Origin: Psammoneis japonica | Taxonomy: Eukaryota | Direction: 5' to 3' | Length of the DNA: 51,206 nt | Assembly (NCBI GenBank): GCA_008632985.1 | Contig: QPGO01000049.1 | Location: 434,001-485,206, forward strand | Notes under the pieces: generated by a model | Databases searched by the model: none | What the model saw: the letters and a program-made list of their open reading frames with translations, nothing else | What the model was told of the DNA's origin: nothing | Position numbers and translations under genes: made by a program | Part shown: positions 1 through 51,206 of the stretch, piece by piece | Numbering within the stretch: position 1 is the first letter of the stretch | Layout: every line of letters begins with the position of its first letter

Positions 1-1140
1 GGGTGCAAAGGCTGGCCAAGGTCAGTGCCACTGGAGCTGCAGCAGCCATGCCATGGCAGCAAAGAACAACTGGGCTCAGAACTTGGCTCAAGAACAGCGC
101 CAGAGAGGATCTGGGACAGAAACATTGCCTGCGAGGCAAGATGTTGCCCTCAACTGATGCACAGACTTGATTTTGCACTTTTGGGGGATGAAAGTGGAAA
201 GTTTGTTGCATTCAGAGGAATGAGCTTGGCACATGTGGGCAAGCAAGAGAGGGGTTTTTCAGGGCTGGCAGGAGGAGCAAAATGGAACAAGGCATTGCCA
301 GTGTGACAAGCCAGGTGTCAGAAGAAACATTTGTCACACACACAACATTGTGCAGAAAAACAGTGCCGGGTCTTGCATGGAAATGCTGGCTCATGCACAG
401 CAGATAAATGATTGTCAAATGATGCTCAAGATTGAGCATGAATTCATTGGTTTTTTTCAAGTGCTTGTTGACGATCACAGGAAAAGAGAGCTCAGCTGAC
501 CAACAACTTGGTCTCTCTACAAAAAGAAAAAGTGTCCAACCCAACCATGTGTGCTGCCTGCTTGGCACTTGCTTGCCATTCAACTTGCACCAGCAGCCTT
601 GTGGCAGAGAGCAGAGGGGGCATGTGCACAAGGGTTGCCAGCATGGCAAGACAAGAAGATCCGGTGTGCAGCAGCATTCACAAGTGGCGGTGCAAAGCTG
701 GCACATGATGTGTGGCTGTGCTCAAGTTTGGGGGGCTTGAAAACAGAGTTGAGGGATGCAAGAACTCATCCAAGGCCAACCAAACATTGGTGTGGGCAAG
801 AAGTGGAGAAATGCTGACAGTGCTCTCTGGCCTTGATGAGCCATTGTTGCTGCAGCACCTGGCTCCTGTTTTGCCATGCCAGCCAGCGCATCATGAGTGC
901 TGCCAGAGCTGCGAACAGCTTCAACTTCCTGCCCAACAACCCAAAGCTGGCAGCACAGAACTCTCAACACAACATCCTGTCTTGTCTGTGCTGGCCATTG
1001 CTGCTGTGACAGCCACACACAGCAGCAGGCTGGGGTTTTGAAGCAGCTTTGCGGCACTGAGGACTTGCAGACTGATTGAGCTGGATGGCCACAGCATGCA
1101 ATCTCTGCACCCTTACAAGGAAAATGGTGAACCTCTTGTT
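1..1140. other. TpA- and CpG-depleted degenerate block, probably an ancient repeat; family unrecognisable
   Basis: Almost no TA and few CG dinucleotides, with strong TG/CA excess. All frames give Cys/His-rich ORFs without recognisable motifs. The right boundary is approximate. Confidence 0.6.
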
Positions 1141-1703
1141 TGTGTTCCATTTTGGACGGAGAAGCAACCCAAACCAGAAGAATCAACAATCCGTCACCAA
1201 GCTGGAAGCGGACAGAATTACACGTGGAAGTTCATGTTGAAGTTTGTGTCGCGCTTGACAAGCGCGGAAAGGTCGGTGAGCCAATTTTCGAAAAGGGTGC
1301 TGAAACTCCCTCCAACGTCCAACGACAAATGCGCCAGCACCACCATGACGAAACAAAACCAACGAGTGGGAGCACCAATAGCAACCCAATTTGCAGCGCT
1401 CACCATGCATCATTTTGGGGCGTACCAGCTCTTGTCACTGGCAAAATGAAACGGGTTGCGAGCCGTTGTGTCACTGCTGAAGTGTCGGCATCATGTTTGT
1501 CTTTGTCCGTCAGGTTGTCGATGTGATGTGATGGCGTTCTCATTTTTTGAGTCGCGGAGCTGTCGTGGAAAGCTGCTTTCTCAAAAAAGAAAACGATACG
1601 CTTCCAGGTACAAATCACAGACAAAACAAGTGTTACAGTAACACAAGAGAGAAGATAGGAGAAACAAGAAGCAAAAAGAAGTACTCAGGAAGAAATGAGA
1701 TGA

Positions 1704-4606: not shown

Positions 4607-4849
4607 TTGTTGTGTCGATGTGCGCTATGATGTGGTTGTGTGTGATTGTCAGAGAGGGCCGACGCCGCCCACGTTACGACGTGCGATCTTCCAAACCTGC
4701 CTCCACACTCCAACCTGCAGACCGAAGCGCTGTTTCTGAAACAAGGAAGAAAAACAATGGAAAGGGTCAGCTTGATGTTACAATCTGCTCATCACAGTTT
4801 CTGTGCACCCAAAGCCTTGGATGACATTGTGTGCTCTGTTCGTTCTGGC

Positions 4850-6560
4850 ACTCCAGTGCACTCTGAACCTGACACACCTTCCCTTTTGTGTGCCACGTGC
4901 TCACACAGATGGCAGAAATGCTGCTTGAGCCTGGTTGAGAACTCCAAGGTCATGCATGATTGAGAAGGAGCCTTGCAAAGGACAACATCTTCCCTGGACA
5001 GTGAGTGTTGGTCCACCACTTTGTGTGCTCTATTCTGACTTTGTGTGCTCCACTCATGAATGCCTGCCCCACCCCTGTGGGAAAGAGAACATCAAGCATC
5101 AACATTCAAGTGTCATTGTTTTTGTGGATCATGCTTCAGGGGAAGTTTTGTCCACTGTCAAACTCACTTGAACTCCCATGAAACCCTTGATGAGTCTAAA
5201 ACTGCCTTTGAGCAGCCTTTGCCTCAGCTGATTGTCAGGCGCACCTCATGGCATTTGAACAAGTGATGAAATGTGCCAGTGTGAGAGTCTGTTGCCACAG
5301 CAACATGTTGCCAAGCAAGCCATCAACATGGCCATCATGTCAACAGCACATTCCATGACATGGCGTGCTGTGATCTGCTGGCCTGGCATGGCCAATGCTG
5401 TCCTGTGGCCATGCCTGGTCCTTCAGCTAGCACACTGGCCCTGCAGAGTTGTTTGCAAGGACCCGCTGACTGCACTCTTGCTTTCAAGATTGCTGTGCTT
5501 GGATTTTTGCCAAGAGGTTTCAGGTCCTCACTTGGCCTCAAAGCTTGTCTGAAGCTCAACAAGAGTCTGCATGAGCTGTCTTCTGCACCCAAAAAGTGTG
5601 GTGCAGAGAACTGCCTCCAACCTTTTCTTGCTTTGAGATTTTTCCAAAGCAAGTTTGATCCCTGCCTCCTGCTCCACCATGACTGCATGGTCTGTGTGCG
5701 TGTCAATCGTGATGGAGGCAACAGCACAGCATTGTGTTTGCCGCTGATGAAGTTGTCAAAGGCCAGCTCAAGAAAGGATTTGATTTGACCAAGGAAGGCA
5801 GCTTTGTCAAGAAGGTTTTTGGGGCCAAGTTCAAGAAGCAAGTGGAAGTGCTGTCAACTTGCTTGTCACAGACTGGGTTGTGAAAGATTGCAAATACAAC
5901 ATTTTGCCTGCAGCACTTGTGGCAACAAGATGGTGAGCTGTGGATGAGCACTGGAGGAGCTGCCCACCCATCATTGGCATGACATCTGCGTTTGCCTGTG
6001 AACACTTGTCCTGACATTGCTTTGGCTGTGAGTGAAGTTGTGTGCTTCAGTCAAGCTCCTCTCAAGTTGTCACATGCTGCTGCTGCTGGCTGTCAAAACT
6101 CTTTTGCTGCTGCTCTCTTGCTTCATCAAGAACTGGTTCAGACCCAAACTCAGAGCTCATTTGTGTGCTGGCTGGTGCCTCTGGTTGCCCTGAATGCTTG
6201 TGTTCTCTGGTCTAAAAATTTGACTCCAAACTTCTTTCTCTTGCTCTGCCCTTGATGTTGAGCACCAAGTGTGGCCTCTTTTGTTGCCTCTTTTAAGAGG
6301 GTGCTTTGAGAGGTTGCGCCATTGTTCTTTGGTGCTCATGTCCAACCTCAAGACCTCTGTTTTTCCAAGTTGCCTTCTTCCTTACAACTGGCCACCACAT
6401 TGCCAACCATGACCATGCCAAGCATTTTCTCATCAAGTGGCGTTGGCTTTGGTCTCACAGCCATGAAATTCTGGACATCAAGATCAAATCAGTGGATTGG
6501 CATGTGCTGATTTCCTCACCAAGCCTTTTGCCAGAGAGCTCTTTCTTGCACCAGCAAAAG
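4850..6560 (+). mobile_element. Degenerate Ty1/Copia (diatom CoDi-like) pol remnant with INT, RT and RNase H fragments
   Basis: Motifs in the expected order: IVFVDHASG and LNSHETL..SKTAFEQ (integrase, ~5110-5215); LKLNKSLHELSSAPKK (cf. LKL.KSLYGL..AP) and FFQSKFDPCLL (RT, ~5550-5670); PDIALAVS (~6010); KHFLIKW.W and ADFLTKP (RNase H, ~6420-6525). Lies in a TA-depleted block spanning ~4630-7940. Confidence 0.8.
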
Positions 6561-8058
6561 AGAGCTCAGGGTTGGTGCACACCATCAGCTCTCTTCGTTT
6601 GTTGCTTGTTGCAGCTTGGACCAAGACTGGAGAAGAGCTGCAGTCAGGTTTGAAGTTGCCCCTGTCATGTGAGCATTGAGTTCTTTTTCTTGTTGAATTT
6701 TTGATTTTTGGCTAAATCTGCAAATGAGAGAGAGATTCAAGGATCATCTGTCCAGCAATCTGAGTTTTGCTTTCTGTTTGTCAATTTGAGCTGTTCCTGC
6801 AATGTTGGCCCCAATTGTCAGAGCTCGAGGCTCAGTGAGAGTCATTTTCCACACAAATGTCGTCACAAGTCCATTGTCAGCTGTGTTTCATGCAGCAGGA
6901 GGTCAATTGCTGCTGGCATCTCCTCCAGTTTGCCGCAGAGGCAATGCAGACATTTGCATGCTGTGAGTCATCTGGTTGCATTTGCCAGCTTTCAACACAG
7001 ACAGCTCACAATTTGGGCATTTGTGCTTTGTGAAAGGCACTTGACTGCCAGCTGAACACTGCATTGTTGCTCATCAGCAGAGCGTTTCTGTTTGCCATCT
7101 GTCTGCTGAGGCACAACCCTGGAGTGGACATCCAGGTGGTGTGCCAAAAGATGCACAAAGCTGGCTCTGTGCACGTGTGAGCTTCAACTCAGAGTGCGTG
7201 ACTCAATGTGTGACAGAATTGAGAATGAGTCCATGAGTGCTTGGCAGTGTGGCAATCCATGTGGCAACCTCTAAAAGGGGGTGCCACTGGATGCTGATGG
7301 CTGAGGCCTTTTTCTGTGCATGGCACTTTGTGAAGAGATTGTGTGTGCCATTGTTGTGCAGGTGATGATCCAATGGTTTTGCTCTTCTCTCTGTCATGCC
7401 ATGAGAGCTTGCTGGATGCTGCGCTGCTGCCTTGCACTTGTGTTGTTCTTGTTGTTGGGTTTCTGCTTGTGTGGTGCTTAATTTGCAGATGTTGTTGTGG
7501 CATGTGCAGATGCAGAAGCATTCAGATGGGCAGCATCAGGTGATGCACAGGGGGCTGCAGGAGGGAGGGAAGGGGCACACGTGAGACAGCACACAGGAGG
7601 ATGTTTTGAGGAAGGAGCAGAGATGGTGGGGGAGGGGAGGGAGGAAAGGAAGTGAAGGATGTGGGCAGCAGAGTGATGAACAATGTTGCAACCAAGGGTT
7701 GGCATCACCCGTTGGGAGGGGGGGGGGCAGAGCAACAAGAGCTGCCGAAGTGATCAGCAGTGAGAGTTGCTGCCAAGAAGCAAAGTGGCAGCAGGGAGGA
7801 GGGCGCCGGAGGGAGAGGAGAGAGCACAGGAGAAAGCATCAAAGGATGCAGCAGAGTTTTGCAAGGATGAGCACGATGCATTGTCTGTTCTCTGAAAGGA
7901 AGTGTGGACTGCCCTTTCGTTCATTGGATCTTCGCTGACAACGGAATGCATGCCGGCACTAACTGCGACTGCCTGGCACATGCAATGCCACTCCCAACGG
8001 GAGGTCTGTAAGTGGTACGGATGGGCATAAGCGAGTATGTACAAAAAAGGAGCGTACG

Positions 8059-9237: not shown

Positions 9238-9240
<3 letters not shown>

Positions 9241-9268: not shown

Positions 9269-9271
<3 letters not shown>

Positions 9272-9275: not shown

Positions 9276-11762
9276 TGAATGTCAAGAATAGAATTGCTTC
9301 CTTTGAAGCCAAAAACAAAGAAGTTTCAGATTCCAAGTATTCACCACCTGATAAGAAGCATGACGCATCCTCCACAACACAAGCAGCAGCCGTGTCGAAC
9401 ACCAGCATGGCGAGTCAAAACAGACGAAATCGACTTGCGGCGGATAATAATGCAAGACAAAATAACACCACTTTGGCATCACGACGACGAATGAGACAAC
9501 AAATGCGAAGGAAAATGGAAACTAGTGAGACTGCGACGACAACAACACAAAACAACAATAGCTTTTCTACAACGCCATCACGACATCAACAAAAAGTACA
9601 AGCATCCTTTCAATCTCGACGACTCACATCCAATCGTCGTTTTGTTCATACCGTGAGTCACGAAAGTTCGGATGAATCATGGGCAGCAGTCATAGCAATA
9701 ACGAAGAAGGTGACGAATTGTTCTTGTCTCCTAATCGGAGATTATCTCCATCACGAATTGCCAAATCCATCGAATGCAACGCATGAAGAATAATGGGATG
9801 ACGACGACCAATACTACTACTTCTCAGCAACAGCATGGCTCATATCAAGAGGAGCAGGATATCTTGTTAGCGTCGTCTACAAACGACGACGAAGCTACGT
9901 TAACCAGTGTTCGACAAGTGGTTACCGGTAGTAGTGCGCCCACGAAAATACCAAAAAATCACAAGACATTCATCGAAATTTCAATCATGATGATTTTGGT
10001 ACAACCGATAACGATACCAAACAGAGTTGGTTGAACCAAGGTGGTGTTGATCCGCATCAAAACAGTGCCGTGTTGCGCATGGCGTCCTCGTCCGATTATG
10101 AAAGTGATGGCAATGACCACAATAAGAAGGGTAGTGGTGGTGGTGGTGTAGCAACCAAGCAGAAGAATCGATCCATTCCTCCACCCGACTCGGCCATGGG
10201 CGCCTTCATGTCGCACAATAGTAGTAATCACTCCTCCTTTCGTCATTATGACGAGGAAGACGATCGCACCTTTGATTACGGATCACTCCTCGAAGAGAGT
10301 ACGCACGGGAGCTTTGATACGCAACAACGAGAAGCACAGCGCAAAGCCAAGGAGGAAAAGGATCAACAAGCCAGTGTCGGCTTTGATCAAGAAGCGTCGT
10401 CGCCTCTCATTAATAAAGATGATGTCGAGTTTTACAAAAATGCCGTCGATTCCGGTGTCGCCAAGGCGGGAGTTGGAGTGGTGGCGGCCGGTGCCGTGGG
10501 AGGGTTGCTCTTGGGGCCTGTGGGTATCTTGCTGAGTGTTGCGGCGGTGGGGATTGGTGTGGGTGCCATGCAGATTCCAGAAGAACAGCGATCCAATGTA
10601 AAAGAAAAGGCAGCCAGTGCCGTCTTTTCGGCAACCGACAAACTCTCGAAGAGCTGTGGGACGGCGTGTATACAGTCTGGAATCGTGGATCAACTACCTC
10701 CGGAAATGACACAGTGTTATACTGGAACGGAAACGGAAGAAGGCACAGTCGGCACCACAACGGTAGTAGAGCCGGATAGTGCGCAAGACGCAGCAGCCAG
10801 CAAGGGAGCGTCCCAAGCAGCAGCAGCAGCAGCAGCAAACGATACCCGCATGGAAAAGGGCGGTGTCAATGATAGCTTTAACAGCACCATGCGAGGGTTG
10901 ATTCCGGAAACAACAACACACAAGTCAACATCTCCATCTCGGAGAGCCGCGTGCTTGCGAGAAGGTAAGGATTGCGTCCAAGTGTTTTTGCGTTTTGCAT
11001 TGTAACGCGCTTTTGATCAAAGGCTCAAGCACGTTTTCCAAAATCTCACTTGTTGTAGTGAGAATAGTTCCAGTGAATCAGATTCATGGGCTGAATCCAA
11101 TACAGCAGCCGCGTGCATGGCTGGATGTCATGGCCAGTGCCAATACCACTATTCATGAAAAGAACGAAGCGATGGAGGAGATTGCAATCTTGGCCAAAGA
11201 CAAGGTATGTGCCTTTTGCTGTGGTACCTTATCAAGTCAATCCAGCTAGTTTCTCACGAGCGACATACTTGCATTGATTGTTTAGAAACATGCGCGGGTA
11301 TTTCTTGATGTAAGTCAACAATAGCTGCCGAGCAACACTGATCGGATAAACCTGCTGTCGCTCACCATTTTTTTCGTCATGCTTCAAATTTCAGGAGGGA
11401 ATCTTGGACTCGCTCATGTGGATAATCAGGACATATCTGACAAAGCTAGAAACTCTGTACCAGTATCTCAAGACGAGACCTTTACAGTTAAGTTGGCCGC
11501 ATGTTGCTGCATCACGTTGGGCAAGGCTCACTGTGCTCTTGTTCACACCGGAGGTGATTTGCTTCTTATGAGCATGTACGAGCATGGCAAAGTCCCCGAA
11601 GACCGTCAATTGGCACAGATGCTGTATGAAACTCCTCACCATACATTTGAAAAGGATGTGTTTGTGCTCAAACCACTCACCATGCCCCAAGCACAAGAAT
11701 TGGCGAAGTCCATCACGCAGCTAGCCGGCGACGACGTTGCGGCTGGAAACCCAAGACGATGA
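9272..11762 (+). CDS. Hypothetical protein with low-complexity N-terminus and Gly-rich hydrophobic segment; three introns; frameshifted in this sequence
   Basis: GT-AG introns 10965-11058, 11205-11285 and 11310-11394 keep the frame (LRE|VRIVPVNQIHG...AKDK|KHARVFLD|EGILDSLMWI), including a 24-nt microexon. Four apparent single-base deletions in short runs (~9682, ~9768, ~9955, ~11451) join the ORF pieces. Gly-zipper-like GVVAAGAVGGLLLGPVGILL segment. Confidence 0.75.
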
Positions 11763-11832
11763 TCGTCGCAAAGTTACTTGTATACCTACATTATTTTCAT
11801 AGTGCACATGATGTTTTTTATACCAGTGTCAT

Positions 11833-11896
11833 CTCTAGCTAGCTAGAGAGTAGTAAAGCCCTATCTAGCTATTAGAGCTAGCTGGCAGAGAGTAGA
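11833..11896. repeat. CTAG-rich tract at a gene-to-depleted-block border
   Basis: ctctagctagctagagagtagtaaagccctatctagctattagagctagc. Confidence 0.7.
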
Positions 11897-11959
11897 AGAA
11901 TGGCACGTTATGTGTCAGCTTGCGGTTTATAAAATAGCATGCACAATTTTAAATTTAAT

Positions 11960-13195
11960 TTGTCACATCTGGGATGTTGTCTTTCATTTTCCTTTCCTGC
12001 AAGTGATGAGGTGCTTTGTGCATGTCATCAAGCAGTCTCCTGATGCTCATGGGAACAATGCAGAACAACTGTCCATGAGCACCAGGTCCTTGAGCTCATG
12101 CTTGATGCTCCTCTTGGGTTGTTCATGCTGCAGCAGATGGTGACAACAGCCCAGGGCAATCAAGCAGCTCTCAGTGTCCTCCAAGTTGTCGGAACCATGC
12201 ACAGGAGGAACTTCACTGCTGTGAAGTCATCTTGTTCCTTGGGTGCACACCCTGTCATGCGCTGGTCATTCTTGGCTTGTGCCATGGCCTTGCTGTCCTT
12301 GCAGGCTCCACCTTGTCCTTGTGCTTTGTCATGACAATCTGCATCTGAAACATGATGGGATTGGCGAAACATTGGCAAAAATGGGTTTGGAATCAACAAC
12401 AATGCTGACCAGGCTTCTGCAAGTCTGTGCTTCTGGGTGGCACAGTTTTGTGTGAGTTTGAGTTCTTGGATTTTGTCAGCGGCACTGTCAATGCCAGCCC
12501 AATCCTTGTGGTGGGTCTCCATCCAATTGTGCAGTGGTTGAGGGGCTTGCCTCAGCCCTTGCCTTGGCATTGACCATGCTCTTGCTGCAATTGTGTGCCT
12601 TCAGTTGGCCATTCACTGGAGACCTGATCAGCAGGTGCTGACAACATTGTGCAATGATGTGCAGGCTGTGCCCTTTGAATGTGGCACTGCACCTGCACAG
12701 GCAGCCATGCTTGGCACTCTTTTCAAAGTGACTGCAACAACCACGCACCTGGTGTCATCCTGTCCAACATGGGCGCAGTTGGTCAAAAGGTGGGGAGCAA
12801 CATCTTGGTGGTTGTGGCCTCTCAGAGTCTCCTGCTTGGCAGTCTGATGCTGTGTGTGTTGTGGCTTGCAAGGCTGGGTGCAGCAACAACCTCTCATCTG
12901 GTGGGTCTGGCAGCAGGACGACTCCTTGTTCTGTGTGATGCCCCTGAACATGCAGACAATGGCACAGCTCAGCCAAGAGTTCCTTGATGGACAACTCATC
13001 TGTGAACACAAACACATCAGAGGCAAAAAGCCAGCAGCAGCTGTCACGAGGAAATGCAAAATGAAGTGGCATCTGTGCTGCTCCTCTTGTCCCTTCACCG
13101 ATGCAGTTTCAGAGGGATGTGAGAATGACGCAACAAAACTGCAGCAGGCATTCTCTCGTTTGCTTTTGGGTTTCCATGCAACAGTGAGCGGATCT
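11960..13195. other. TpA/CpG-depleted degenerate block, unassigned repeat remnant
   Basis: Essentially no TA over ~1.2 kb. Ends at a short ttttagctctctagag...gtagag tract (13195-13220). Confidence 0.65.
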
Positions 13196-37821: not shown

Positions 37822-38059
37822 TGTTGTAATTTGTCCTTCTGGCAACCATTCCAGAGCCACCTCAGTCCTCTGAGGTCTGATCCTGAGGCCAAAGTGGACA
37901 AGCTTGTTGTCACAATGCTTTCTGAGAGTTAAAAGAGAATGATGACTGCTTCCATCGGCTGTTTTGTTGCTTCACGTGGAGCACATGAGCGCTGGCGCAT
38001 GCGTCTTCTTCACGCTGTCTAATTTTGGTGTTTGAACTTTTGGCCCACCATTTCCAACA
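37822..38059 (-). repeat. Inverted internal 3'-type LTR (238 bp)
   Basis: Reverse complement of the other LTRs, preceded on the minus strand by the purine-rich gcaggagtg. Confidence 0.95.
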
Positions 38060-41000: not shown

Positions 41001-41079
41001 TGCGTGTGACCTTCAAATCGGCCTTGTTGTAGACTTGCAGCACATCTTCCAGAGCTTCTTGATGAGCCAGTTGGGTCAA
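37972..41079 (-). pseudogene. pol: Copia pol (integrase-RT-RNase H), TA-mutated
   Basis: RIRCDNEF, EHVPEAERNNR (INT); KRDGRIKSRLCANGS, ADIPSAFVQT, DPCVANR, TWHVDDLK (RT); TDAAFAVH, NTRSSTEAE, RDNQS, ADCMTKP (RNase H). Tyr is nearly absent, replaced by Cys/His. Confidence 0.95.
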
Positions 41080-42930
41080 GTCCTTGAGCGGTTGTGCCGT
41101 GCGATAAAAAATGTTTCATGACACTGTGGTGAGGAATGGCAATCCATTCACCTTGAGACCGTCCAGGCAAAGAGTGACCTTGTGTTGTGCTGCAATGAGC
41201 TCCTTCAGGATCTCCACGCAGTCTTCTACAACTGGCTCCGGCTTCTGCCTTGTGACCTTGCCTTTTAGACTTCCAATGTCTGGTCCAAAAATCTTCTCGG
41301 CCAAATCTACATCCTCCGTTGTGATGGGATTGTTCTTGATGCTGTTCATGCAAATGATGGCCTTCAGATTGTTCACGGTTGGGTTTCCCAATGCGTGCAA
41401 CAATTCCCCAGCCCTCTTGGCTTTCTCGAACTGTCGTGGAGTGTAGAACTTCTTGTTCTCTTCCACACTCTGCACAAATTGGAGCTGAGTTCCAGTGTCG
41501 TTTGTCTTGGGCTTGTAAACGTGCAGCCCTTTTTCCGTCCTCCTCGAACCTGACCTTCTTGTTGGGGAGATGAACGGTGAATGCATTGTCTTGCTTAGAA
41601 TCACTTGTGATTCTGTGTTTCTTCTTCATGTCAGAGCAAGCAAAAATGTTGGTGATTGCATCTGGGTTGAACCAAGTCTCGCCAAACCCTGGCACCGTGG
41701 CCTTGTGTGTCGTGACTGGGACTCCGCCATTGGTGTGCAAATGCATGGCTTCATCCAACGGACTGATGTCTGCAACGAGCTTCTCATTGCAGAAGATTGT
41801 GGTTGTGGACTGGTTGTCCAATAAAATCCAGTCTCTCATGCTGCCAGATTGATCCTGGTGGAGAGATGCATCGATGTGCATGCCAGCCCATCCTGAAACA
41901 GCAGATTTTGTTCCAGTGGATTCTTTGGCAGAAGAGTTGGCTGCACTGGCATCGTCACTTGCCTGAGCGTTGCTTGCTTCTTGCTTGGCTTTGGCCTTGT
42001 TGATGGCCCATTCTGCTTGAGGTTTTCCTTGCCTTTCCCAGCACTTGTTGGAATTGTGTCTGGCCTTGCCACAGCAGCAACACTTGCCTTCTAACTGAGT
42101 GAAGGACAGCGTGATTTCTTGGTTTTCTTCTTGTTTCTTGGAGTCAGAGTTGTTGTTTTGATTGTTCCTGTTACGGCAGTTGTCAGGCTGACCAACACAG
42201 TCAAAAGTGTGGTTGCTCAACACCGTGTTGGCTTCCACAATGGACTTGGGACATTGGTTGTTCTTGAGGGACTGCTGAGTGTTCAATCCTGTTAGAATTG
42301 ATCCACACTTGCGCTGGTCTGCATTCTCCAAGTGCATGTAACCCATCAATTGGCTGAACGACTTTTCTTGACACTTCTTGACAGAATCCGCATTGTGCTC
42401 GTCAAATTCTGACATGCCTTGCACTGCCTTGGTGAGGACAATTGGTCCTCCAATGTGAGACTTCATGATGTCCCTTGCAACCCTGAATCTCTTGGTGCAA
42501 TCTTGGAGACTCTCCTTCTCCTTCTGCTTGGTTTCCAGCACCGCTCTCATTGAATCTGAGATGACAGCCATGTCACACCTGTGCTCTTGGCAGTTCAATG
42601 CATGCTCCTTAATGGCCTTGAGCAATTCGACAGGATCGTTTTTAATTTTGGTTTGGAACTGTGTTCTTGCTTGAATCTTGTTCTTCATGGCCTTGGAGCA
42701 TCTCTCCCAGAGCAAAGCACAAGCCTTGACAAGGTTGTTCTCACAAGTTTGGGTCCTCTTAATGTGAGCATCAAATTCTGTCTTGAACTCAATTTCATGC
42801 TGTTTGTTCAATGGCATGTCCACCTTGTCATCTCCAGTCAAGCTGACCTGCAAAGTTGGCTTCTTAGAACTCATGTCACATGGAGTGTAAGTGTTGAGTG
42901 CAGTTGCAATGTCATTTCCAAACTCATGAG
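41080..42930 (-). pseudogene. gag: Copia gag-protease region, 5'-truncated and frameshifted
   Basis: EFGNDIATAL; zinc knuckle KCCCCGKARHNSNKC (cf. CYCCG..GH....C); protease WILLDNQST; FYTPRQFEKAKRA, NNPITTEDV.LAEKIFGPDIGSLKGK. Frameshifts near 41535 and 41100. Confidence 0.9.
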
Positions 42931-44058
42931 TCGAAGGAATCGGATTTGAGATTGATCCTTGTGATCCATGTGTCGCCAACCGCATCGTGAATGGAAAACA
43001 ACACACTGTGACATGGCATGTGGACGATTTAAAGTCTGGTCATGTTGACAGCAAGGTCAACGATGAATTCAAGATTTGGTTGGACAAAACTCACGCGGAT
43101 GAGATCGGAAAGGTCAAAGTCATGCGTGGAAAGAGGCACGACCATCTAGCCATGACTCTAGATTGCTCCATTCCAGGAGCACTGCAAGTTGACATGGTGC
43201 TTTATGTGCAAGGAATGGCCAAGGAGTTCTTCAAGGAATTCCCAGAAGAATTGTCGGGTGACGTGGATTGCCCGTGGAGCGAGAAGCTCAACAAGGTGGA
43301 TGAGACAGCCAAGAAATTAGATCTCAATCGTGCTCGAGCATTTTGCACTTTTGTGATGAAAGGGCATGTTTGTGTGCAAGAGAGCCAGACAGGACATTCA
43401 GCCTGGCATTGCTTTTCTCTCCACCAGGGTCAAGGATCCGAATGAATTGGATTGGCCAAAGCTGGTGAGGCTCATGAATTTCCTCAAGACAACCCAGCTT
43501 GATGTCGCAGTCATGTCGGCTGGAGACAAAGTCATCATCGAGTGGCACACGGGTGCCACATTCACAGTCCATCTGGACTGTAAAAGTCACACAGGTTCTG
43601 CCATGACCCTTGGAAAAGGCATCATTGCATCAGTCAGCATGAAGCAGAAGATCAACACCAGGAGTTCTGCAGAAGCAGAGATCATCGCAGGAGACGATGT
43701 TTTGGCAAAGGTCCTTTGGACCAAGCGTTTTGTTGAAGCTCAAGGTTTTGAAGTCGAGCGCAACATCATGCATCGAGACAATCAAAGTTGCATGAAACTG
43801 GAACAAAATGGAAAGGCCAGCTTGGGCAAATGCACAAGACATTTCAACATCAAGTGCTTTTACATCACTGACCTCATCAAGCGAGGAGAACTTGAGATTA
43901 AGTTCTGCCCAACAGACAAGATGATGGCAGATTACATGACCAAACCAGTGGTTGGTAAAAAAGTTCATTGTTGATCGTCAAGCCATCATGAACATCCAAG
44001 TGCCCAAGATGGTCAAATTTGGAAATGGCAAGAATCTTGTCATTGGTCAGCAGGAGTG
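42931..44058 (+). pseudogene. pol: Second copy of Copia RT (3' half)-RNase H, inverted duplicate of 38060-39185
   Basis: Near-identical to the minus-strand copy (EGIGFEIDPCDPCVANR...ADYMTKP), with small indels near 43360 and 43960. Confidence 0.95.
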
Positions 44059-44297
44059 TGTTGGAAATGGTGAGTTAAAAGTTCAAACACCAAAATTAGA
44101 TGGCGTGAAGAAGATGCATGCGCCAGCGCTCATGTGCTCCACATGAAGCAACAAAACAGCCGATGGGAAGCAGTCATTGTTCTCTCCCAACTCTCAGAAA
44201 GTATTGTGACAACAAGCTTGTCCATTTTGGCCTCAGGATCAGACCTTGGAGGACTGAGGTGGCTCTGAAACAGTCACCAGAAGGATGAATTACAACA
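44059..44297 (+). repeat. 3' LTR (239 bp)
   Basis: gcaggagtg|tgttggaaatgg...gaattacaaca|cagcc. Confidence 0.95.
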
Positions 44298-46063
44298 CAG
44301 CCTCGGAGCAGCTTCCTCGGAGTGTCCACACTGTCAGTTCCTTTGGGTTTGTTTCGTCGCTCATGTTGAATGGCGACACCTTGGTTCCCAATGTCCTTCC
44401 ATTTGCAACGTCCTTTCCAACACCGAGGACTCTCCCATCCTCCACTCTGTGAAGATGCGTGCTGAAGCCAGGGATCTTGAGCTCTCCCTTGACTTCAAGC
44501 TTCTTTGGATTTGCCAAGTCGATGATGTGGAGCGGATCCGTTTCCCCAAATGTCACAACGCATGCAATGTCCTTGTGATGTCGCACCGCAAAGATGCGCT
44601 CGCCAACGCCTGGGTCTTCAACAAGGCCCACAGGCTTCAGCAAGCCCTTGTCATCGTCGATCTTGAATGAAGTGACCCTGCTCTTGCTGAGCGACCGCCC
44701 TGTCCACCAAGAGGCCCCGACGGTCGACGCAATGAAGAAGTGGCCGTCGTTCTCGTGCACAGAGAATCGGTTGAGGATGCCACCCTGTGAGCAGCAAACA
44801 AAGACAAGACTTGAGCAAAGCCATGCATTGAAATCCACTCGGGCAGTGAAGCACGCTTGCTTGCGGTGATTTGACCAGATGCTCTGTGTGTCGCCCCCGT
44901 TTTGCTCAGGCTAAATCGGTGGATGCGTGTCTGGCAGTTCGGACCCCAACGGTTGGCGCTGTTGGGCACATTGCCAAATTGGAACTCATTGGTCGTCACG
45001 TGCATCAACTGCTTGGTCACGTGCAAAGCCTCGGCGTTGGAGACAATTGAGTTTGATGACGTTGGAGTCATGAGTTTGTTGAGCGGCAGCGTCACTGCTG
45101 AGAGCATCAAAAAGGCCGAGAACACATCTGGCAAATGGCACAGGTCACTGCATGACCCGCACACGCCAACCTGTGTTTGCTTTCCCTTTTGAAGCTTGTG
45201 GGTTGGCAGCCAATTCCCAGCCCTTGAGCATTCGATGATCTCCTGGTTCCACTTGAGTGTCTGATCTGACTTGTGTGTGCGGTTGGGCCTGTGCAGCCAG
45301 ATGGACTGCAAAGGTTGAATTTGATCACGATTCGTGCAACGCCATCTGTTTCACGCACCTTGACGTATGATCCTTCAAGATGAAGCATTGAAATCAGCTT
45401 CGGCTTGCAGTTCTTGATGCGGATTTGGTGCAAAACAGTCAAGTCCTCACCACGTGACGGATGGCGTCTGTGCTGTTGTTGGACCTTGCGTTTGTAGTTA
45501 CGGTCGCGACCAATGACGATGACAAAGTTCTTTTCGAGCAGCATGTCGTCCGGGCGGGCAGGCAGTTGGATTGTTCCAGCAACTCTTCCGCCCCCACCCT
45601 CGTTGAGGACCTTGATGACGGCCAACTTTGAGCCCGAGATCGCGCACACCATCTCACCATCAGTCTTGACAATGTCGGCCTCGTCGATGCCCTTTACCTG
45701 GACATTGGCACCCGAGAAGTCCTTGCCCTCCTCCTTGCCTTCTTTGTCATCTTCATCGTCGATGAAAGAATTGCCTTTGGTGATGTTTCCCTTTTCAATG
45801 ACTTTGGGGTCTTCGAAAGGCTTGTAGAGCTTTGGCCCAGCAGGCCCGCCCGGACAGCCTGGCTTGCCGGCAAACTCTGGATTTCGGGTCGGTGTGCAGG
45901 CGTTGCGGGAGTTGAGGCCGCATGGACCGATGAGCGGCAGCACCTTGTTGATGTGGCAGTTGTTCATCGCGGTGCAGCTGTCGAAGCTGCTGATGAGCTC
46001 TGGCTGCGAGGTGCAGGGCGACAGAACCAGGGACAAGGCGAGGATGAACGGTGACAACATCAT
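44298..46063 (-). pseudogene. 5' part of a secreted beta-propeller domain gene (Beta_propel/PF09826-like), TA-mutated, with decayed intron 44785-44864
   Basis: Signal peptide MMLSPFILALSLVLS; family motifs FSGANVQVKGIDEADIVKTDG, GGILNRFSVHE.DG, GERIFAVR, VVTFGETDPLHIIDL, GELKIPGFSTHLH; frameshift near 45312. Confidence 0.88.
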
Positions 46064-46399
46064 CGGGGCTGGAAAGAGCAGTGGTTGTTGACAGTTGGTA
46101 ACTTCTTAGGATTGATTGTTTGTGGGAGTGTTGGCGAGAGCAGTCGTTCGAAATCGGGTGATGGGTGATGCGAAGCCGAATTGCTGTGTTCTTCCAACTT
46201 CTCCTCCAGCATGTCAATCAATCGTCAAACACTGAGTTAAGTCATTTCACAAATGCCACACTGCAAACAGTGATTTGAGAATTAAATGATGGGCAAGAAA
46301 GGACTTGAGCTCAGACGTTGTCAATCGATCCGTGACCTCGAACCCACAATCACATGACATGACATTGCTTGGGGCCCTCTGCTGGCAGGAGCACGCAAA

Positions 46400-47170
46400 C
46401 ATTTGTGTGGTGAAAGGGCAATGATGGTCGATTTGAACAATGATCCTCTGTCAAATGTTTCTTTCAAAATGTCCGACCGATGCTGGATTCTCGTTTCTGA
46501 CTGGGGCGGTGTCAGGGAGCAGACATTGCAATGATCATTGACAGTCATTTGCCCAACCTTTTTCCGATGGAGTGCAACAAAGATTTGTTGTGCCATGTGC
46601 CAAAAGACCCATGTGTGTAGACACCCCCCTGCTGTTTTCTTGCATTCTGATTGGATCTGCTGCGTCACAATTTCAAGCGCAGATGGATGATGATGGCTTG
46701 AGGATGATCCCGAGTTGCCCGAATTCCCCCCGCACTGTAGACCCATTCCAGCTGCCATCCTTCATCGACGCGGCATCCACCACTGGACATGCCCATGCCC
46801 TTGCTGGTGCCACCATCGACCACCGCTGTGCCATCCAAACCCTCACAGCCACCAGCTCCACCGAGGCCGAATTCATTGCTTGTGTCACCGCGGCCAAACA
46901 AACCTTGTGCCTCTGTTCAGTGTTGGTGTTGGGCTTTCCTCAAAAGGGACCTGCACCCCTGCACACTGACAACTCATCGGCTGTCAAGAGATGGTCAATC
47001 ACCAAATCCCCACCGAGTGATCACGGCACATTGACACCTGACATTTCGCAATCTAAGACTGGCAGGAGGCCAACAAGATTGTCGCCAGACATGTTCCAGG
47101 TGTCATTGACCCTGCCAATGTGCTTGTCAAGGTTGTGGGATGGATCCTGCATGCCTGCCATGCTCACCGA
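46400..47170 (+). mobile_element. Degenerate Copia RNase H fragment from a different family
   Basis: FIDAA-STTGHAHALAGATIDHR..IQTLTATSSTEAEFIACVTAAKQ...LGFPQKGP..LHTDNSSA. Left boundary approximate. Confidence 0.85.
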
Positions 47171-47949
47171 TTGATGGAACACTGCCATTGAACAGATCAG
47201 TGCTTGTGCCCCTGGACCATTGCAGGGCGATTGGCGATTGTCTGTTGCACATTTCCCATCTGTCACACTGTTCTCTCTTCTCTTCATGCATCTTTGATGC
47301 TGTTTTTTTTCTCTTGATTGGCATCTGCTGATTGCTCATCAGGGGAGGGTGACAGAGCTGACCGAGTCATGAGTCGTGCGTGCCTGTGAGGTGGCTCACA
47401 GTCACACACCCAGTGGACAGACATTGTCACAAGCAGCGGATGTGCTTCCTCACTTGTGTCAACTCTCCTTGGGGAGAAGTTGCAAAACTGCTGTGGAGGC
47501 AGGAATTCTGGCACAACCTCTTTCTCCAACAGATGCTGTGGCTCCTGCAAAACCAAGCTGATGGCTCGCACACGTGTGCCACCAGCTCCCATGGCTTCAC
47601 TGCTTTTGAACACACTGATTTCCACTCTGAGTGGTTGTGAGCCCAAGCTTGCATGTGTGCCCACTCACACACATGCAAAACTTTTGAGCCACACTTGCCC
47701 ATGGTGGTCAGCAACAATGTCATGATTTGGGCATCACAGCTTGCAGCTTGCACAGGCGTGACACACTCAAATGTCAGTGCAAATTTTTTCAAACCCTTTG
47801 CTGATGCTGTTCATGCTGTGTGGACCTCATGTGCCCCTGATTTAACAGGCACCAAGCAAACAATTAGGTTCAAAAAGGAAGAGTGAGTTAGAGGCAAGTC
47901 AAGGATGACAGTGAAAGAGGAACATGGAACTTTGTGTGGAGGAAAACAG

Positions 47950-49500
47950 TGCTCTGCTCTGTTGTTCTGGCATGAGAGCAGCTGACAAAGAAAGTCTGGC
48001 TCCATTGCTTCCTCCATTGGATGACACTCTCCAGGATGGCACAATGGAGTTGCAACATTTCTTTGAAAGCCAGGATGATGTTGACTGTTGCATGCTGGCC
48101 AGTGGTGAAAACACCAGCCGGGCTCCCAACCGACAGTGAAACCTTTGATTTCAGCCAGCTTTGCTTGTTAATTGAGCACAAGTGGATGGAGACAGATGAG
48201 TCAAAGACTTGGAGCAGTTGTGCTCCAACATTCTAGAACAGCATCAACAAGAGCAAGATTCCTTCAAGCTTCACTCTTGCAACAATCTTTTCATCAGTTC
48301 TGCCTGGACTGTTGGCAGTGAGAAGCAATTGTTCCACATGTTGCCCCACGTTGTGAGGGTGGATGCAACTTCTCACTCCAACAATGAGAAGAGGATGCTC
48401 CTCACATTTTCAGCCAGGTCACCGGATTGATCACACTTTGTTTTTTGCATGTGCACTTGCCAGACCAGACTCAACCCACATCTCGCTGGATGTTCAAAGA
48501 TGTGTTTCCAACACTTTTGGACAAGCGGTCCCTCCAACACATCCACATGATGTTTGCCGACAGTGATTCCCCCAAGTCATTGAAGAGCTCCGTGATGCCA
48601 TCCACAGCCATGTGCCTTCAACCTGCCAAGCAAGATGTGGATGGCACATTGTTGAAAAAGGTTGGATGACTCACTGCCCCAGAGAAAAAAGCATCTCTGC
48701 GGGCCAAACTTGTGAGTGATTCAAGCTGTCAGTTGCCACAACAAAGGCACAGTTGTGCTCAAGCACTGTGAAAAAGCCAACAACTCAAGTCATGAAGGAA
48801 CCAATTTAGGCAGCACCCCAGTCCTGAATTTGCAAAACCTGGCAACAACTGCAACTTTTCTGGCAATGCAGTCAGATGCAAAGGTTGCAGAAATGCTGTG
48901 TGAATTAAGTGGGATGGTGCACACATGGTGTCTTTGGTTGAAACTTCCAACCGTCAATCATGTGCTGACCAGGTGCAAGGGCATGCTCTCCAGATGTTGG
49001 AAAGCTGTCCATTGTCATGAGGTCAGGTGCAAGCTGAATGGTCAAAGCAATGACCCCAACTGCGCAGCATGGGAAGCAGCTTGCAAAGTTACAAATGACA
49101 AAGAAAGCAACACACAAGGAAACCCCAAAGACCAAGAATGCCAAGAACAAGAAAACAATTCTGAGGAAAGCAACCCATGCTTCAAGCACATCCCAAAGCA
49201 CCAGCGGGTGCTTGTTGTCTGCATGGATGGATCATGAGTTCTTCATTGTGCCTGTGCTGAGTTCCAACGCACAGGCATGGGATGCATTCATCAGTTGTCC
49301 ATGATGAAGTTTGAGTTGGGCCAGCAATTTAAAGGATTCTCTCATCTCATGACGTGTCCATTGCATGGTGGCAAAAGCATTCCCACCATGCTTTCAGTGG
49401 GAACAAGCAAGTGGATGGCCTGGATGACATTTTCAAAGCTTTGTTGGAAAATGATGCAAAGGGGCCATGGATGCCAGATCACTTTGATCCAACAGTTGTG
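47950..49500 (+). mobile_element. Degenerate Mutator-like (MULE) transposase with SWIM zinc finger
   Basis: LFHMLPHVVRVDATSHSNNEKRMLLTFS (first catalytic Asp region), RWMFKDVFPTLL...MFADSD, RCGWHIV (CxxH, ~48634-48654) and LHCACAEFQRTGMGCIH (SWIM, ~49241-49291) in the expected order. Boundaries approximate; lies in a depleted block running to ~51100. Confidence 0.75.
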
Positions 49501-51206
49501 CCCAAGCCAACCACCATGACAGAGTCTGTTTTTGACATGCCCTGCAATGTCATGTCATCTTTGACCAACTGCTCTGAGGAACAAGCAAAGCAAGCAGTCA
49601 AATCCACCATGCCATTGTTCAACACACAGCCACTGCTGAATTTTCACAGATGCCCAATGTCAACATGCAGGATGAGGGTGATGGAGACCAAGACCTGGTG
49701 CTCAGTTTCCTGGATGATGCTCGCCAATCCGGTTGTGAAGTGTGGTCCCAAAATGACACTGAACAACAAGTCATGCATTGCAACCAAAGTGCTTGCAACA
49801 TTTTGGTGCCAAGGACAAACACTCTTTGTGGTCTGTTTGTGTCTCAAGATGTGTCCTGTGTGGACATGCCAGACATCAAACCCTTGGCAACAGCAACAGA
49901 CGAGGCAATTGCAGAGATGTGAGGCAAGCTGCACTCTCTCCATGTGTCTTTGTCAGACTGCCAAGACAACTCTGCACCACAATGGATGTTGAATTGTGGC
50001 AAGCAAGACACAAAGCACTGATGCACCCACACACGAAAATGGTCTTGCTTGAATGGTGGCACATGCAGTGGTGCACCTGAATCATTGGGGGGTGTTGCAC
50101 ACACTGAAAGAAAAAGCTCAACTGCAACCCACTTTCAATGCCTGACACGGTGATCAAGTCACAGACCAATGGCATCTCAAAGAACTTTGCTTGACAAATC
50201 AACACCATCACCATGACCAAGTGGTTCCAACAGACTCACTGGGTGATCTGCAGCAAGCCATTGCTTGGGAGTTGTGAGTTCTCTTGGGAACTTGAATGAC
50301 TTCAAAGTCTCCACACTGGGCAAGGAGCTTGCACTCATGTCAACCTTCATGTTCACATGGTGAGCTGTCTCATCTTTTTCTGGCAATTCACCACCACAAG
50401 GGAATCTGTCAATGACATGCTCACACATTCCTGTGTTGTCTTGTCCAGGCAAATGAACAGCAAGAGCCTTCATGCCGATGCACTCAAACATGGGAGTGTG
50501 CTCTTAAACAAGGCATTGCAAAACTCTTTGCTCTTCATGGTTGTCTTGTTTCTTCTCCTTGCAAAGGCATGGCTTGAGCCACCTCTCTCTGCAGTGCTCT
50601 GCCAAGCCAGCACGTTCTCTCCCAAGATGATGTTGCAGTGTCTTCCCAAAGGCACAAATCCTGGGTTCACTTTTCAACCGTGCTTCACAGGAAGCTCACA
50701 ATTGATGGCTCCTGTGACTGCATTGGCTGGTTTGACAACAGCCTGTGTGGCCATCTAGGAAGGCAGGGTGCCTGTCTTTCCCTTCTGGCCAACATCATGA
50801 GTGCCGGTCAAATTGCCGCATTGTTTGACAAGCCTTGTTGATTTGGTCCAGCTGAGGAGGAACCACTCAAACAGAAATCTCTTTCCATGGTGCAGGCATG
50901 CTGCAGCCCTTCCAGTCATCTTTGGGCATGACATCTGCATCAGGCTTGAGTGCATTGCTGAAATGATGGAAGTCCTCTTGTCCTCCATGTTCCTCCTTGC
51001 TTTGCCCGGCACATTCTGCAAATGTCAAAGAATGCACCCAGCCCACTTTCATTCTCACAAATGTTGAAAATGGAAAGCCTTTGGCTTTGCAAAACAGGGA
51101 GCTGGAACAATTTCGTAGAGGATCACATGCAGACATGTGCACGCGAAACGTGGCGCGATCCAAAAATCTGTTGATGTCACAGTTCAGCAGTGCAAGGTCC
51201 CACCTG

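Follow-up and report, generated by a model that had tools for sequence, protein, structure and literature searches.

TpA-erasing hypermutation has previously been reported once, in an alga unrelated to diatoms. Mettrop et al. (bioRxiv 10.64898/2026.01.13.699255) describe integrated viral DNA of Bigelowiella natans that mutates ~1,000-fold faster, by A>G and T>C changes only and at TpA only, at ~6e-7 per site and generation, as seen in 11 of the 15 lines. According to the same preprint, Rho_TpA falls to 0.45 in the NCLDV region, the genome contains clusters depleted of TpA and enriched for CpA+TpG, and CDS poor in TpA show an enrichment for domains of reverse transcriptase and DDE endonuclease. 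Its authors draw a comparison with RIP and put forward a DNA adenine deaminase similar to ADAT2 as a candidate; the term CpG is absent from the main text of the preprint.

Fungal RIP, which is RID/Dim-2 dependent and requires repeats and a premeiotic stage, ruins duplicated or mobile DNA in place by a hypermutation made up of transitions only. With dinucleotide specificity and on both strands, it converts C to T, mainly at CpA, and thereby makes TpA; blocks of aberrant composition remain amid normal genes. Diatoms have DNMT4 enzymes related to RID, of a function described as not known (Hoguin et al. 2023, PMC9998398).

In this study we analysed one stretch of Psammoneis japonica DNA (contig QPGO01000049.1 of GCA_008632985.1, positions 434,001-485,206, forward strand), a single region of 51,206 nt referred to as the window. 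Observed/expected ratios (o/e) of TA, CG and TG+CA were computed in 500-bp windows and for pooled block and non-block DNA. Five blocks amounting to 27,395 bp contain 119 TA (o/e 0.07), whereas the 23,811 bp of non-block DNA contain 986 (o/e 0.59). The non-block frequency predicts ~1,130 TA for the blocks, and chance is therefore excluded as the cause of their scarcity. Within blocks, TA counts per 500-bp window range from 0 to 8, mostly 0-5 (o/e 0.00-0.28), and the longest TA-free runs extend over 2,110 bp (28469-30579), 1,534 bp and 1,242 bp. The blocks end sharply, and genes lying between them have a normal composition, the latter as the initial annotation had stated.

That annotation had called for a sliding-window check of TpA and CpG, which within the window bears out the TpA loss but also reveals a CpG loss overlooked earlier: the blocks hold 631 CG (o/e 0.37) vs 1,231 (o/e 0.94) outside, with the lowest ratios, 0.04-0.2, at 1-1100, 4750-7750, 12000-13000 and 47250-51000. 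TG+CA stand at o/e 1.70 in blocks vs 1.21 in non-block DNA and, per bp, TA+CG are down by 0.066 and TG+CA up by 0.062. The loss is specific, since AA (1.23 in blocks vs 1.12 outside), AT (0.88 vs 0.94), TT (1.13 vs 1.17) and TC (1.03 vs 1.06) are unchanged while TA is lost. Judged from composition, the blocks also appear to carry CpG decay of the 5mC type, with CpG lost and TC and CC unchanged (CC o/e 0.88 in blocks, the same as outside).

Block 1 (1-1114), TA-free and CpG-poor, runs past the left end of the window; it has 1-2 TA per 500 bp, CG o/e of 0.11-0.21 and TG+CA o/e of 1.8-2.0, with no recognised gene or TE and no Pfam match. Block 2 (4779-7960) is of the same TA-free, CpG-poor type, with 0-3 TA per 500 bp, CG o/e of 0.04-0.34 and no Pfam match. 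Block 3 (11957-13197), again CpG-poor, shows zero TA over 1,242 bp, its edges being located within tens of bases and both its flanks being TA-dense. Block 4 (24169-31274), TA-free over 7.1 kb with CG o/e of 0.1-0.6, contains a 93-bp tandem array (28553-29130, plus strand, families D1 and D2) with TG/CA swaps between units, and long ORFs without homologues. Block 5 (36455-51206) is TA-depleted and runs past the right end; it comprises a beta-propeller pseudogene with a Copia insertion and, at 46.2-51.2 kb, TA-free, CpG-poor DNA without identified content. A sixth stretch proposed earlier, 17850-18350, was rejected from the set, its TA shortage being only mild (o/e 0.26-0.27), its CG o/e 1.03 (18001-18500) and 0.59 (17751-18250), and its TG+CA o/e only 1.27-1.51; near-absence of TA holds for the other five.

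Pfam and ORF searches identified content in block 5 only, and as four of the five blocks have no identifiable content, the label 'foreign or repeat DNA' is demonstrated for Copia only. No similarity between different blocks was found within the 51-kb window, and Pfam detected no MULE, such as had been announced, nor any other TE domain besides Copia in 322 block ORFs of at least 45 aa.

Where four Copia loci had been counted, we found a single one (37356-44297), made of two rearranged copies of one family, and a ~400-bp fragment outside the block. The outer insertion is delimited on the plus strand by a 5' LTR (37356-37593) and a 3' LTR (44059-44297), with TG..CA ends and the 5-bp TSD CAGCC upstream (37351-37355) and downstream (44298-44302). 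Inside it, the minus strand carries a gag-pol with one frame break (38122-42949), accompanied by an LTR copy (37822-38059), and the plus strand an inverted 3' fragment of the same family (42930-43968, pol residues ~1272-1616), which together with the LTR forms one arm of an inverted repeat (37822-39185 / 42931-44297; 1,367 bp, 94.5% identity). The polyprotein is 50-60% identical to diatom RVT_2 polyproteins of ~1,600 aa and matches a profile built from those over positions 56-1625 of ~1,650, its Pfam RVT_2 score of 27.6 lying under the curated cut-off of 31.6. By its polyprotein, LTR ends and TSD, the element is a Ty1/Copia LTR retrotransposon.

Over 1,364 aligned columns of the inverted pair, 71 of 72 substitutions are transitions. 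YpR<->YpR changes account for 54 of the 75 differing columns (including CA/TG 14, CG/TG 8, CA/CG 7, CA/TA 8 and TA/TG 3), and 17 transitions and one transversion fall outside YpR dinucleotides; CG opposes TG/CA at 15 sites. The two copies have 7 TA and 31 CG in common, and the pair counts give an estimated change per copy since the split of ~0.7 of TA sites and ~0.2 of CG sites. In this 1.4-kb repeat pair, TpA has changed several times faster than CpG and far faster than other sites. Furthermore, the LTRs of the outer insertion are 90.8% identical, with four TG/CA-discordant, four TA-vs-TG/CA and four CG-vs-TG sites. Since the two LTRs of a retrotransposon are identical at integration, the TpA changes occurred after integration.

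The gene broken by the Copia insertion carries the same signature. Its remnant is a Beta_propel (PF09826) pseudogene on the minus strand, with an upstream part split over three frames (44299-46066) and a part downstream of the insertion (37049-37366, profile 408-494), and is a non-TE, non-mobile, host-type gene. Its TA o/e is 0.04-0.15 with a nearly normal CG o/e of 0.7-0.87 (44.3-46 kb), and TpA loss and CpG loss are therefore separable. The reading of conserved Tyr as Cys or His, noticed in the initial annotation, is found in 26 of 35 Copia columns (C 18, H 8, Y 4, F 2, Q 2, T 1) and in 8 of 10 columns of the pseudogene (H 7, C 1, Y 1, F 1). Other conserved residue types in Copia are kept in 69-100% of columns, and 28 conserved Tyr columns are kept at 71-100% (median 93%) in the protein homologues among the matches listed.

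An unmutated comparator lies just outside block 5, namely the related Copia fragment of ~400 bp (LTR and pol end; 36002-36408, minus strand), which keeps its TA: 19 in the 511-bp aligned stretch 35950-36460 vs 4 and 8 in the 491-bp in-block copies. In 14 of the 28 variable YpR columns of the four-copy alignment, the out-of-block copy reads TA where the in-block copies read TG/CA, and a single column has it the other way round. The polarity is TA>TG/CA and both strands are affected, in agreement with the TpA-specific A:T>G:C process proposed at the outset. Active family consensuses that are themselves TA-free had been named as a refuting outcome; in 79 loci of this Copia group from metagenomes, TA o/e is 0.45-1.09 and none is TA-depleted, and the TpA signature is thus not general among diatoms. 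Many of these loci are CpG-poor (o/e down to 0.08) with normal TA. Decay of 5mC at CpG explains the CG>TG/CA part of the changes in the blocks (o/e 0.37, and the 15 sites of the Copia pair), but it cannot remove TpA, and the CpG-poor relatives keep theirs.

We are highly confident that a post-integration, TpA-specific process is real, and consider it probable that sharply bounded, presumably silenced domains underwent a real, in-situ, DNA-level TpA>TpG/CpA hypermutation that is nearly saturated. The affected domains would include the Copia retrotransposon, the broken host gene and intergenic DNA of no identifiable kind. In them, an A:T>G:C transition at TpA on either strand would give TpG or CpA almost to saturation, and a slower CpG>TpG/CpA decay, as expected from cytosine methylation, would run in the same domains. 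We lean towards a defence that is dedicated or targeted over a side effect of heterochromatin; through Tyr>Cys/His and other changes, it would strip DNA bearing a foreign or silent mark of its coding capacity. As for the chemistry, an adenine deaminase is tentatively put forward as the most likely option: adenine could be turned into hypoxanthine, read as G, by a polynucleotide deaminase of the ADAT2/TadA type that is brought to silent chromatin. The natural tRNA substrate of such enzymes is an A with U before it. No clean flanking-base rule was found for the TG versus CA outcome.

The sequence is alike compatible with adenine deamination and with a thymine-directed chemistry; TA>CA on one strand is TG on the other, and T>C fits as well as A>G. 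In that alternative, a TET/JBP-type dioxygenase would oxidise the T of TpA in silent chromatin to 5-hydroxymethyl- or 5-formyluracil, and the oxidised base would sometimes pair with G, giving T>C, the targeted TpA process being otherwise unchanged. Dinoflagellates carry 5hmU in place of T, preferentially at TpA and TpC, TpA contexts harbour base J and 5-formyluracil can pair wrongly with G; moreover, 5mC is a further substrate of this enzyme class, and TpA loss would thereby be linked to CpG loss. We nevertheless regard it as unlikely, as the two losses are separable in the pseudogene, near-complete conversion would require a high mispairing rate, and literature combining 'diatom' with '5-hydroxymethyluracil' consists, among the matches listed, of dinoflagellate titles. 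A very improbable origin is a by-product of error-prone repair (Pol-eta-like, WA>WG) in repeatedly repaired methylated or damaged heterochromatin, one of the mechanisms suggested initially. Pol-eta somatic hypermutation does have an A>G bias where T precedes A, a few multi-base changes adjacent to TpA (TAA<->TGG twice, TTA<->CCA) involve A in ApA, and CpG decay in the blocks could provide T:G mismatches triggering repair. However, the WA motif covers ApA and predicts its loss too, and is disfavoured because neither AA nor TT is depleted in the blocks; at 44.3-46 kb, TpA loss is complete despite nearly intact CpG.

A modified TpA base in heterochromatin, on both strands and miscalled strand by strand, would also yield random TG/CA; this miscalling, which the initial annotation had kept in view, or an assembly or polishing error over true TA, is largely refuted and has little probability left. 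The letters were compared with X1, a sequencing run whose library type and platform are not on record and which is not independent confirmation because it shares its sample with the likely assembly source. True TA predicts ~4 differences per 100 bases, whereas X1 contigs differ by 2 letters on 11678-12858 (a contig of 1,182 letters), 10 over 27434-28462 and 21 over 29491-30664, in ~1.0-1.2 kb each. Their k-mer depth on blocks is ~50-64, at which noisy long reads would not be expected to give solid 31-mers. Over block 3, X1 has a single contig and, because the summed depth equals that of this one contig, shows no second, TG/CA-swapped path. Miscalling is unlikely since accurate X1 contigs give the same TA-free sequence; in the Copia copies, CpG decay, the breaks in frame and the other 17 transitions also resemble ordinary evolutionary decay, and Illumina-sequenced Bigelowiella lines gained the same changes as de novo mutations (bioRxiv 10.64898/2026.01.13.699255). 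Only a slight chance is left to editing before integration, in which retrotransposon RNA or cDNA would be hyper-edited by an ADAR- or APOBEC-like enzyme and inserted already mutated. In animals, ADAR and APOBEC3 are deaminase-driven, transition-type defences against retroelements and viruses that work on RNA or on cDNA not yet integrated. ADAR-type enzymes favour U before the edited A (bioRxiv 10.64898/2026.01.13.699255), and each Copia copy has a private change set. Yet such editing predicts the same changes in both LTRs and untouched flanks; the diatom changes are chromosomal, the LTRs of one insertion are discordant, the flanking non-mobile pseudogene is mutated, and kilobases without retroelement signature are also affected. 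LTR discordance and the mutated pseudogene refute it as sole cause. It is scarcely credible, finally, that the blocks are natively TA-poor through foreign composition or selection against TA. Most blocks have no identifiable relatives giving the ancestral composition, but Tyr codons became Cys or His in two unrelated genes, the out-of-block copy and the 79 relatives are TA-normal, sister LTRs are TG/CA-discordant and the mass balance holds; for block 5, the Tyr changes, out-of-block copy, relatives and LTRs refute native TA poverty.

The in-situ TpA hypermutation preferred here would, by analogy, be the same kind of process as that measured in B. natans. In both, TpA becomes TpG and CpA. In B. 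natans this occurs in delimited regions of foreign-type integrated DNA; here the regions have sharp edges with normal genes between them, one block combining Copia and a host-type pseudogene and four being without identified content. The diatom A:T>G:C changes are likewise confined to TpA, with a separate CpG>TpG/CpA component in addition. The hosts differ, a rhizarian vs a stramenopile, and so do the targets: viral inserts in the former, and in the diatom a retrotransposon of the LTR type, the remnant of a host gene and DNA without identified content. Ongoing mutation was measured in B. natans, whereas the diatom blocks present the end state alone, which would be a saturated one, with kilobase TA-free runs and a ratio of 0.07 vs a Rho_TpA of 0.45; CpG is co-depleted in most diatom blocks and unmentioned in the main text of the preprint. 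The initial annotation knew of no description of such a process. Our literature searches found no diatom report, so that the diatom case would be new, but the kind of process has a precedent in B. natans.

With fungal RIP the blocks share in-place transitions on both strands, dinucleotide specificity and an aberrant composition amid normal genes, but the direction is opposite: RIP gains TpA at the expense of CpA/TpG, whereas the blocks lose TpA (o/e 0.07) and gain CpA/TpG (o/e 1.70). The idea that repeats as such are targeted is not supported in that form. Copia copies and the tandem array are mutated, but so is the host pseudogene, while the ~400-bp Copia fragment beside block 5 is spared and block 3 corresponds to a single X1 contig. 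In the 93-bp array, the units display all four TG/CA combinations at two adjacent sites.

The near-absence of TA reported by the initial annotation is real, and falls in five TA-depleted blocks at positions 1-1114 (block 1), 4779-7960 (block 2), 11957-13197 (block 3), 24169-31274 (block 4) and 36455-51206 (block 5). A further stretch listed there, at about 17850-18350, is not counted with them: its TA paucity is mild and its CG observed/expected ratio (obs/exp) reaches 1.03. In 500-bp sliding windows the blocks hold 0-8 TA (mostly 0-5; obs/exp 0.00-0.28) with TG+CA at 1.4-2.1, and most windows over the genes between them have a TA obs/exp of 0.3-1.0; the longest TA-free runs measure 2,110, 1,534, 1,242 and 1,175 bp. 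Pooled over 27,395 bp, the blocks contain 119 TA (obs/exp 0.07), 631 CG (0.37) and 5,838 TG+CA (1.70), versus 986 (0.59), 1,231 (0.94) and 3,603 (1.21) in the 23,811 bp of non-block DNA; the CpG depletion was absent from the initial annotation. Per base, the blocks differ from the rest by -0.037 TA, -0.029 CG and +0.062 TG+CA, so that the TG+CA excess is fully covered by the TA and CG losses, which sum to about the same amount. No global strand bias of TG versus CA was found across the window, TG/(TG+CA) lying locally at 0.43-0.65 and changing sides with the orientation of the element, a pattern close to that of ordinary genes. The edges of block 3 are sharp, with a TA at 11956, none until 13198, and TA-dense DNA flanking both sides. 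To the right of block 1 (1114-1700) TA is sparse, with 4 in ~600 bp, and CpG is normal from ~1150; the TA-poor zone there extends beyond the CpG-poor one.

Block 5 comprises a host pseudogene identified with Pfam as Beta_propel (PF09826), on the minus strand at 46066-44299 and continuing at 37366-37049, with pieces in different frames and relatives among algal and bacterial proteins. The gene is split by a 6.9-kb insertion with 238-bp LTRs at both ends (37356-37593 and 44059-44297), which have TG..CA termini; the same 5-bp duplication, CAGCC, flanks the insertion at either end. The insertion carries a minus-strand Copia gag-pol (38122-42949), matching profile positions 56-1625 and 50-60% identical to diatom polyproteins of ~1,600 aa, and, from the same family, a 3' fragment in inverted orientation (42930-43968). 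A related Copia LTR/pol fragment of 400 bp (36002-36408, minus strand), just outside block 5, has kept its TA and served as unmutated comparator. Four Copia loci and one MULE had been proposed from the sequence; our searches, which found one Copia locus and this spared fragment, neither confirm nor disprove them. Three telomere-like CCCTAA units (35980-36003) lie directly against the end of the spared fragment. The Copia locus itself is rearranged (37822-44297) within one LTR pair and a single target duplication: most of a plus-strand element has given way to a copy on the minus strand that is cut short at residue ~56 and abuts the plus-strand 3' fragment. The 1,367-bp repeat carrying an inner LTR copy is 94.5% identical and the outer LTR pair 90.8%; judged from the identity of the whole repeat, the two outer LTRs look less similar to one another than the inner LTR is to the outer one at the 3' end.

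Between the inverted Copia repeat arms (1,364 aligned columns, 94.5% identity), 71 of the 72 substitutions are transitions, and 54 of the 75 differing columns are changes from one YpR dinucleotide (TA, TG, CA or CG) to another, with 14 TG-versus-CA, 11 TA-versus-TG/CA and 15 CG-versus-TG/CA sites. When four Copia copies are aligned, half of the variable YpR columns (14/28) have TA out of the block and TG and/or CA within it, and the reverse occurs in one; TA counts are 19 in the 511-bp out-of-block stretch and 4 and 8 in the copies inside the block (491 bp). The core inference of the initial annotation, a TpA-specific A:T>G:C process acting on both strands, proves right. The two LTRs of one insertion are identical at integration, and the outer pair now has 4 TG/CA-discordant, 4 TA-versus-TG/CA and 4 CG-versus-TG sites. 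Since once-identical sister LTRs now differ at TpA-type sites, the process hit chromosomal DNA after integration.

The same change is seen in the encoded proteins. At 35 Copia columns with at least 80% Tyr among 45 homologues, the window keeps Tyr at 4 and has Cys at 18, His at 8 and another residue at 5, and every other conserved residue type is retained in 69-100% of columns (Arg in 91%). Of the ten conserved Tyr columns of the non-mobile beta-propeller pseudogene, seven read His and one each Tyr, Cys and Phe, so the earlier observation that Tyr reads as Cys or His stands at 26/35 and 8/10 columns, respectively. In the Copia repeat pair 7 TA are shared, 11 one-sided and about 13-14 sites discordant, which implies ~44 TA sites when the copies split, a normal density, and a per-copy conversion of ~0.7. 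For CpG, 31 shared and 15 one-sided sites give a per-copy conversion of ~0.2, and outside YpR dinucleotides only 17 transitions and one transversion are found in the 1,364 columns; TpA loss is thus by a wide margin the most rapid of these processes. Furthermore, the two losses are separable, since the beta-propeller pseudogene has lost TA (obs/exp 0.04-0.15) with CpG nearly intact at 0.7-0.87. The process is strictly TpA-specific, acts on both strands, produces only transitions, is confined to domains and follows integration; an independent CpG decay runs beside it.

That the blocks reflect miscalling of a modified base, or an assembly artefact, instead of true TG and CA is very improbable. 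The stretch occurs in the sequencing runs of one study, with no RNA data set among the matches listed. Contigs of X1, a sequencing run from the same sample as the likely assembly source, match the window across the blocks at a k-mer depth of about 50-64, the 31-mers being solid at such depth, which indicates accurate reads. Had TA been present, ~4 differences per 100 bases would be expected in these contigs, whereas they carry other letters at 2 positions over 11678-12858, 10 over 27434-28462 and 21 over 29491-30664. In block 3 a single contig accounts for all of the summed X1 depth, which leaves no room for a second path with TG and CA swapped; ordinary decay is present in the same Copia copies. 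As X1 comes from the probable source's own sample, on a platform not on record, this agreement is consistency rather than independent proof. A second run, X2 (30 million letters), covers genes and has depth 0 in the bin 12335-13001 and in 7 of 11 bins over 23674-31000 (1.27 or less in the remaining four), its uncovered part saying nothing on expression or absence. A third run, X3, contributed nothing over the window. A natively TA-poor Copia family, named in the initial annotation as a counter-case, is rejected, the 79 same-group relatives at metagenome loci having a TA obs/exp of 0.45-1.09; many of them have low CpG (down to 0.08) but no loss of TA. Hypermutated relatives were findable, because the search patterns were free of Tyr and occur unaltered in the Copia copy of the window. 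The normal TA of these relatives therefore indicates that the signature is not general among diatom Copia elements. Of 28 conserved Tyr columns, the protein homologues listed keep 71-100% (median 93%), and the named ones keeping Tyr include Fragilaria crotonensis and Nitzschia inconspicua entries.

Hypermutation of chromosomal DNA as a defence is known from fungi (RIP, C>T), and RIP works in the direction opposite to the TpA loss of the window. The initial annotation knew of no description in diatoms, and none was found in a literature search with most subscription journals outside its coverage; the search did find a precedent in Bigelowiella natans, and no second organism. According to the main text of an April 2026 preprint (10.64898/2026.01.13.699255), mutation-accumulation lines of B. 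natans acquired ~6e-7 mutations/site/generation in two integrated viral regions, with A>G/T>C making up 230/231 of the changes, every one of them at TpA, in 11/15 lines. In that genome, windows poor in TpA and rich in CpA+TpG form 124 clusters, and reverse transcriptase and DDE endonuclease domains are over-represented among TpA-poor CDS; that main text has 0 occurrences each of 'diatom' and 'CpG', and its authors propose an ADAT2-like DNA adenine deaminase as the candidate enzyme (10.64898/2026.01.13.699255). The window is thus a second, far more saturated case of a once-described process, found in a different SAR lineage and hitting a retrotransposon, and is not categorically new. Diatoms also have DNMT4 enzymes related to RID, of unknown function (PMC9998398).

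Sequence alone cannot tell adenine deamination from thymine oxidation. ADAT2/TadA-type enzymes naturally deaminate A preceded by U; because of this preference, and of the same proposal by the Bigelowiella authors, our favoured chemistry, at not quite an even chance, is a DNA adenine deaminase of this type that would convert A in TpA. Thymine oxidation comes next and is unlikely. A Pol-eta-like polymerase had also been suggested in the initial annotation; AA and TT, like AT, TC and CC, are the same in blocks as in non-block DNA, which counts against its WA motif. RNA or cDNA editing before integration is likewise disfavoured by the discordant LTR pair and the mutated beta-propeller pseudogene. 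As for targeting, the window does not support repeat homology as the trigger. Of the TA steps left, hardly any stand in the RTAY context (3 in blocks versus 271 in non-block DNA), and YTAR is over-represented (63 versus 194), which hints that T-A-pyrimidine may be the better substrate, a point from which we draw no conclusion; residual TA may partly be fresh C>T products. No clean flanking-base rule was found in trinucleotide gains or in the Cys/His choice at Tyr codons (Cys:His 18:8 in Copia, 1:7 in the beta-propeller). Multi-base changes beside TpA (TAAA<->TGGG, TAA<->TGG, TTA<->CCA) occur at 37930-37935 / 44180-44190 and other Copia-pair sites, the editing sometimes spreading to adjacent A's on the same strand (e.g. 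TAA to TGG).

A second, phylogenetically distant case means that TpA hypermutation is no one-species oddity; it broadens the process to retrotransposons and adjacent host DNA, and its LTR pairs are clean proof of action after integration. A chromatin-guided TpA editor could be an old or recurrent genome defence of SAR algae (rhizarian and stramenopile), saturating in this diatom and independent there of repeats and of cytosine methylation, a possible reading with the balance leaning against it. If true, its patchy presence in diatoms (absent in the 79 environmental Copia relatives) would make the enzyme findable by phylogenetic profiling, and it may prove to be the first natural adenine editor of double-stranded DNA in eukaryotic chromatin. 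Comparing diatoms that show the signature, diatoms that lack it and Bigelowiella offers a route to the enzyme, and a natural, strictly TpA-specific editor of DNA adenine (or thymine) would be of interest to base-editing work. TA-free blocks also mislead annotation, as long spurious ORFs arise without TAA and TAG, and TE proteins are missed by profile searches.

Pfam searches of 322 ORFs from all blocks (92 + 91 of at least 75 aa and 139 of 45-74 aa) gave no confirmed TE domain, the matches being coiled-coil-type on a tandem array, sub-threshold RVT_2 and Beta_propel pieces, and nothing else. Searched with a profile of the 45 Copia homologues, blocks 1-4 and the stretch at 46.2-51.2 kb yielded no additional Copia, and the blocks compared with each other showed no similarity. 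Three minus-strand ORFs of 282-364 aa (24485-25576, 28471-29535 and 26651-27496) lie in TA-free DNA, with no homologues found; phmmer of 24485-25576 against 1.84 billion proteins returned one repetitive match (E 4.6e-8, 8 stretches), and the ESM Atlas nothing usable for two block ORFs. TA-free DNA cannot carry TAA or TAG, and long open frames there are therefore an expected by-product, not evidence of genes. In block 4, the units of a 93-bp tandem array carry all four TG/CA combinations at two adjacent sites. X1 depth bins of 189-323 over parts of this block, versus about 50-60, suggest that these parts are multi-copy, summed contig depth being unable to rank regions.

Between the blocks, an acetyl-CoA synthetase gene (19704-21848, minus strand) shares 63-78% identity with proteins of diatoms, Grammatophora, Cylindrotheca and Nitzschia being among the named matches, and the genes here assign the window to a diatom; further non-block genes encode a DUF6824 protein, a cyclin, Kelch/FG-GAP proteins and a TPR-methyltransferase. 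CTAG-rich simple arrays at 11835-11880, 13198-13225 and 17555-17850, with units like CTCTAGCTAGCTAGAG / GCTCTAGAGCAGAGCCAGCT (TA obs/exp ~1.0-1.1, AT 0.37-0.51), adjoin TA-free block 3 and sit upstream of genes, retaining all TA despite their repetitiveness and adjacency to a hypermutated block; one X1 contig links 17657 to 11837 via the letters of such an array. Tandem duplications at 16561-16863 / 16870-17172 (92% identity, within the DUF6824 gene) and 34831-34980 / 34978-35129 (96%, in normal-TA intergenic DNA) are also without TA loss. Over 14800-17230, X1 yields contig pairs of about equal depth with many substitutions and small indels between them, which look like two divergent haplotypes of a diploid.
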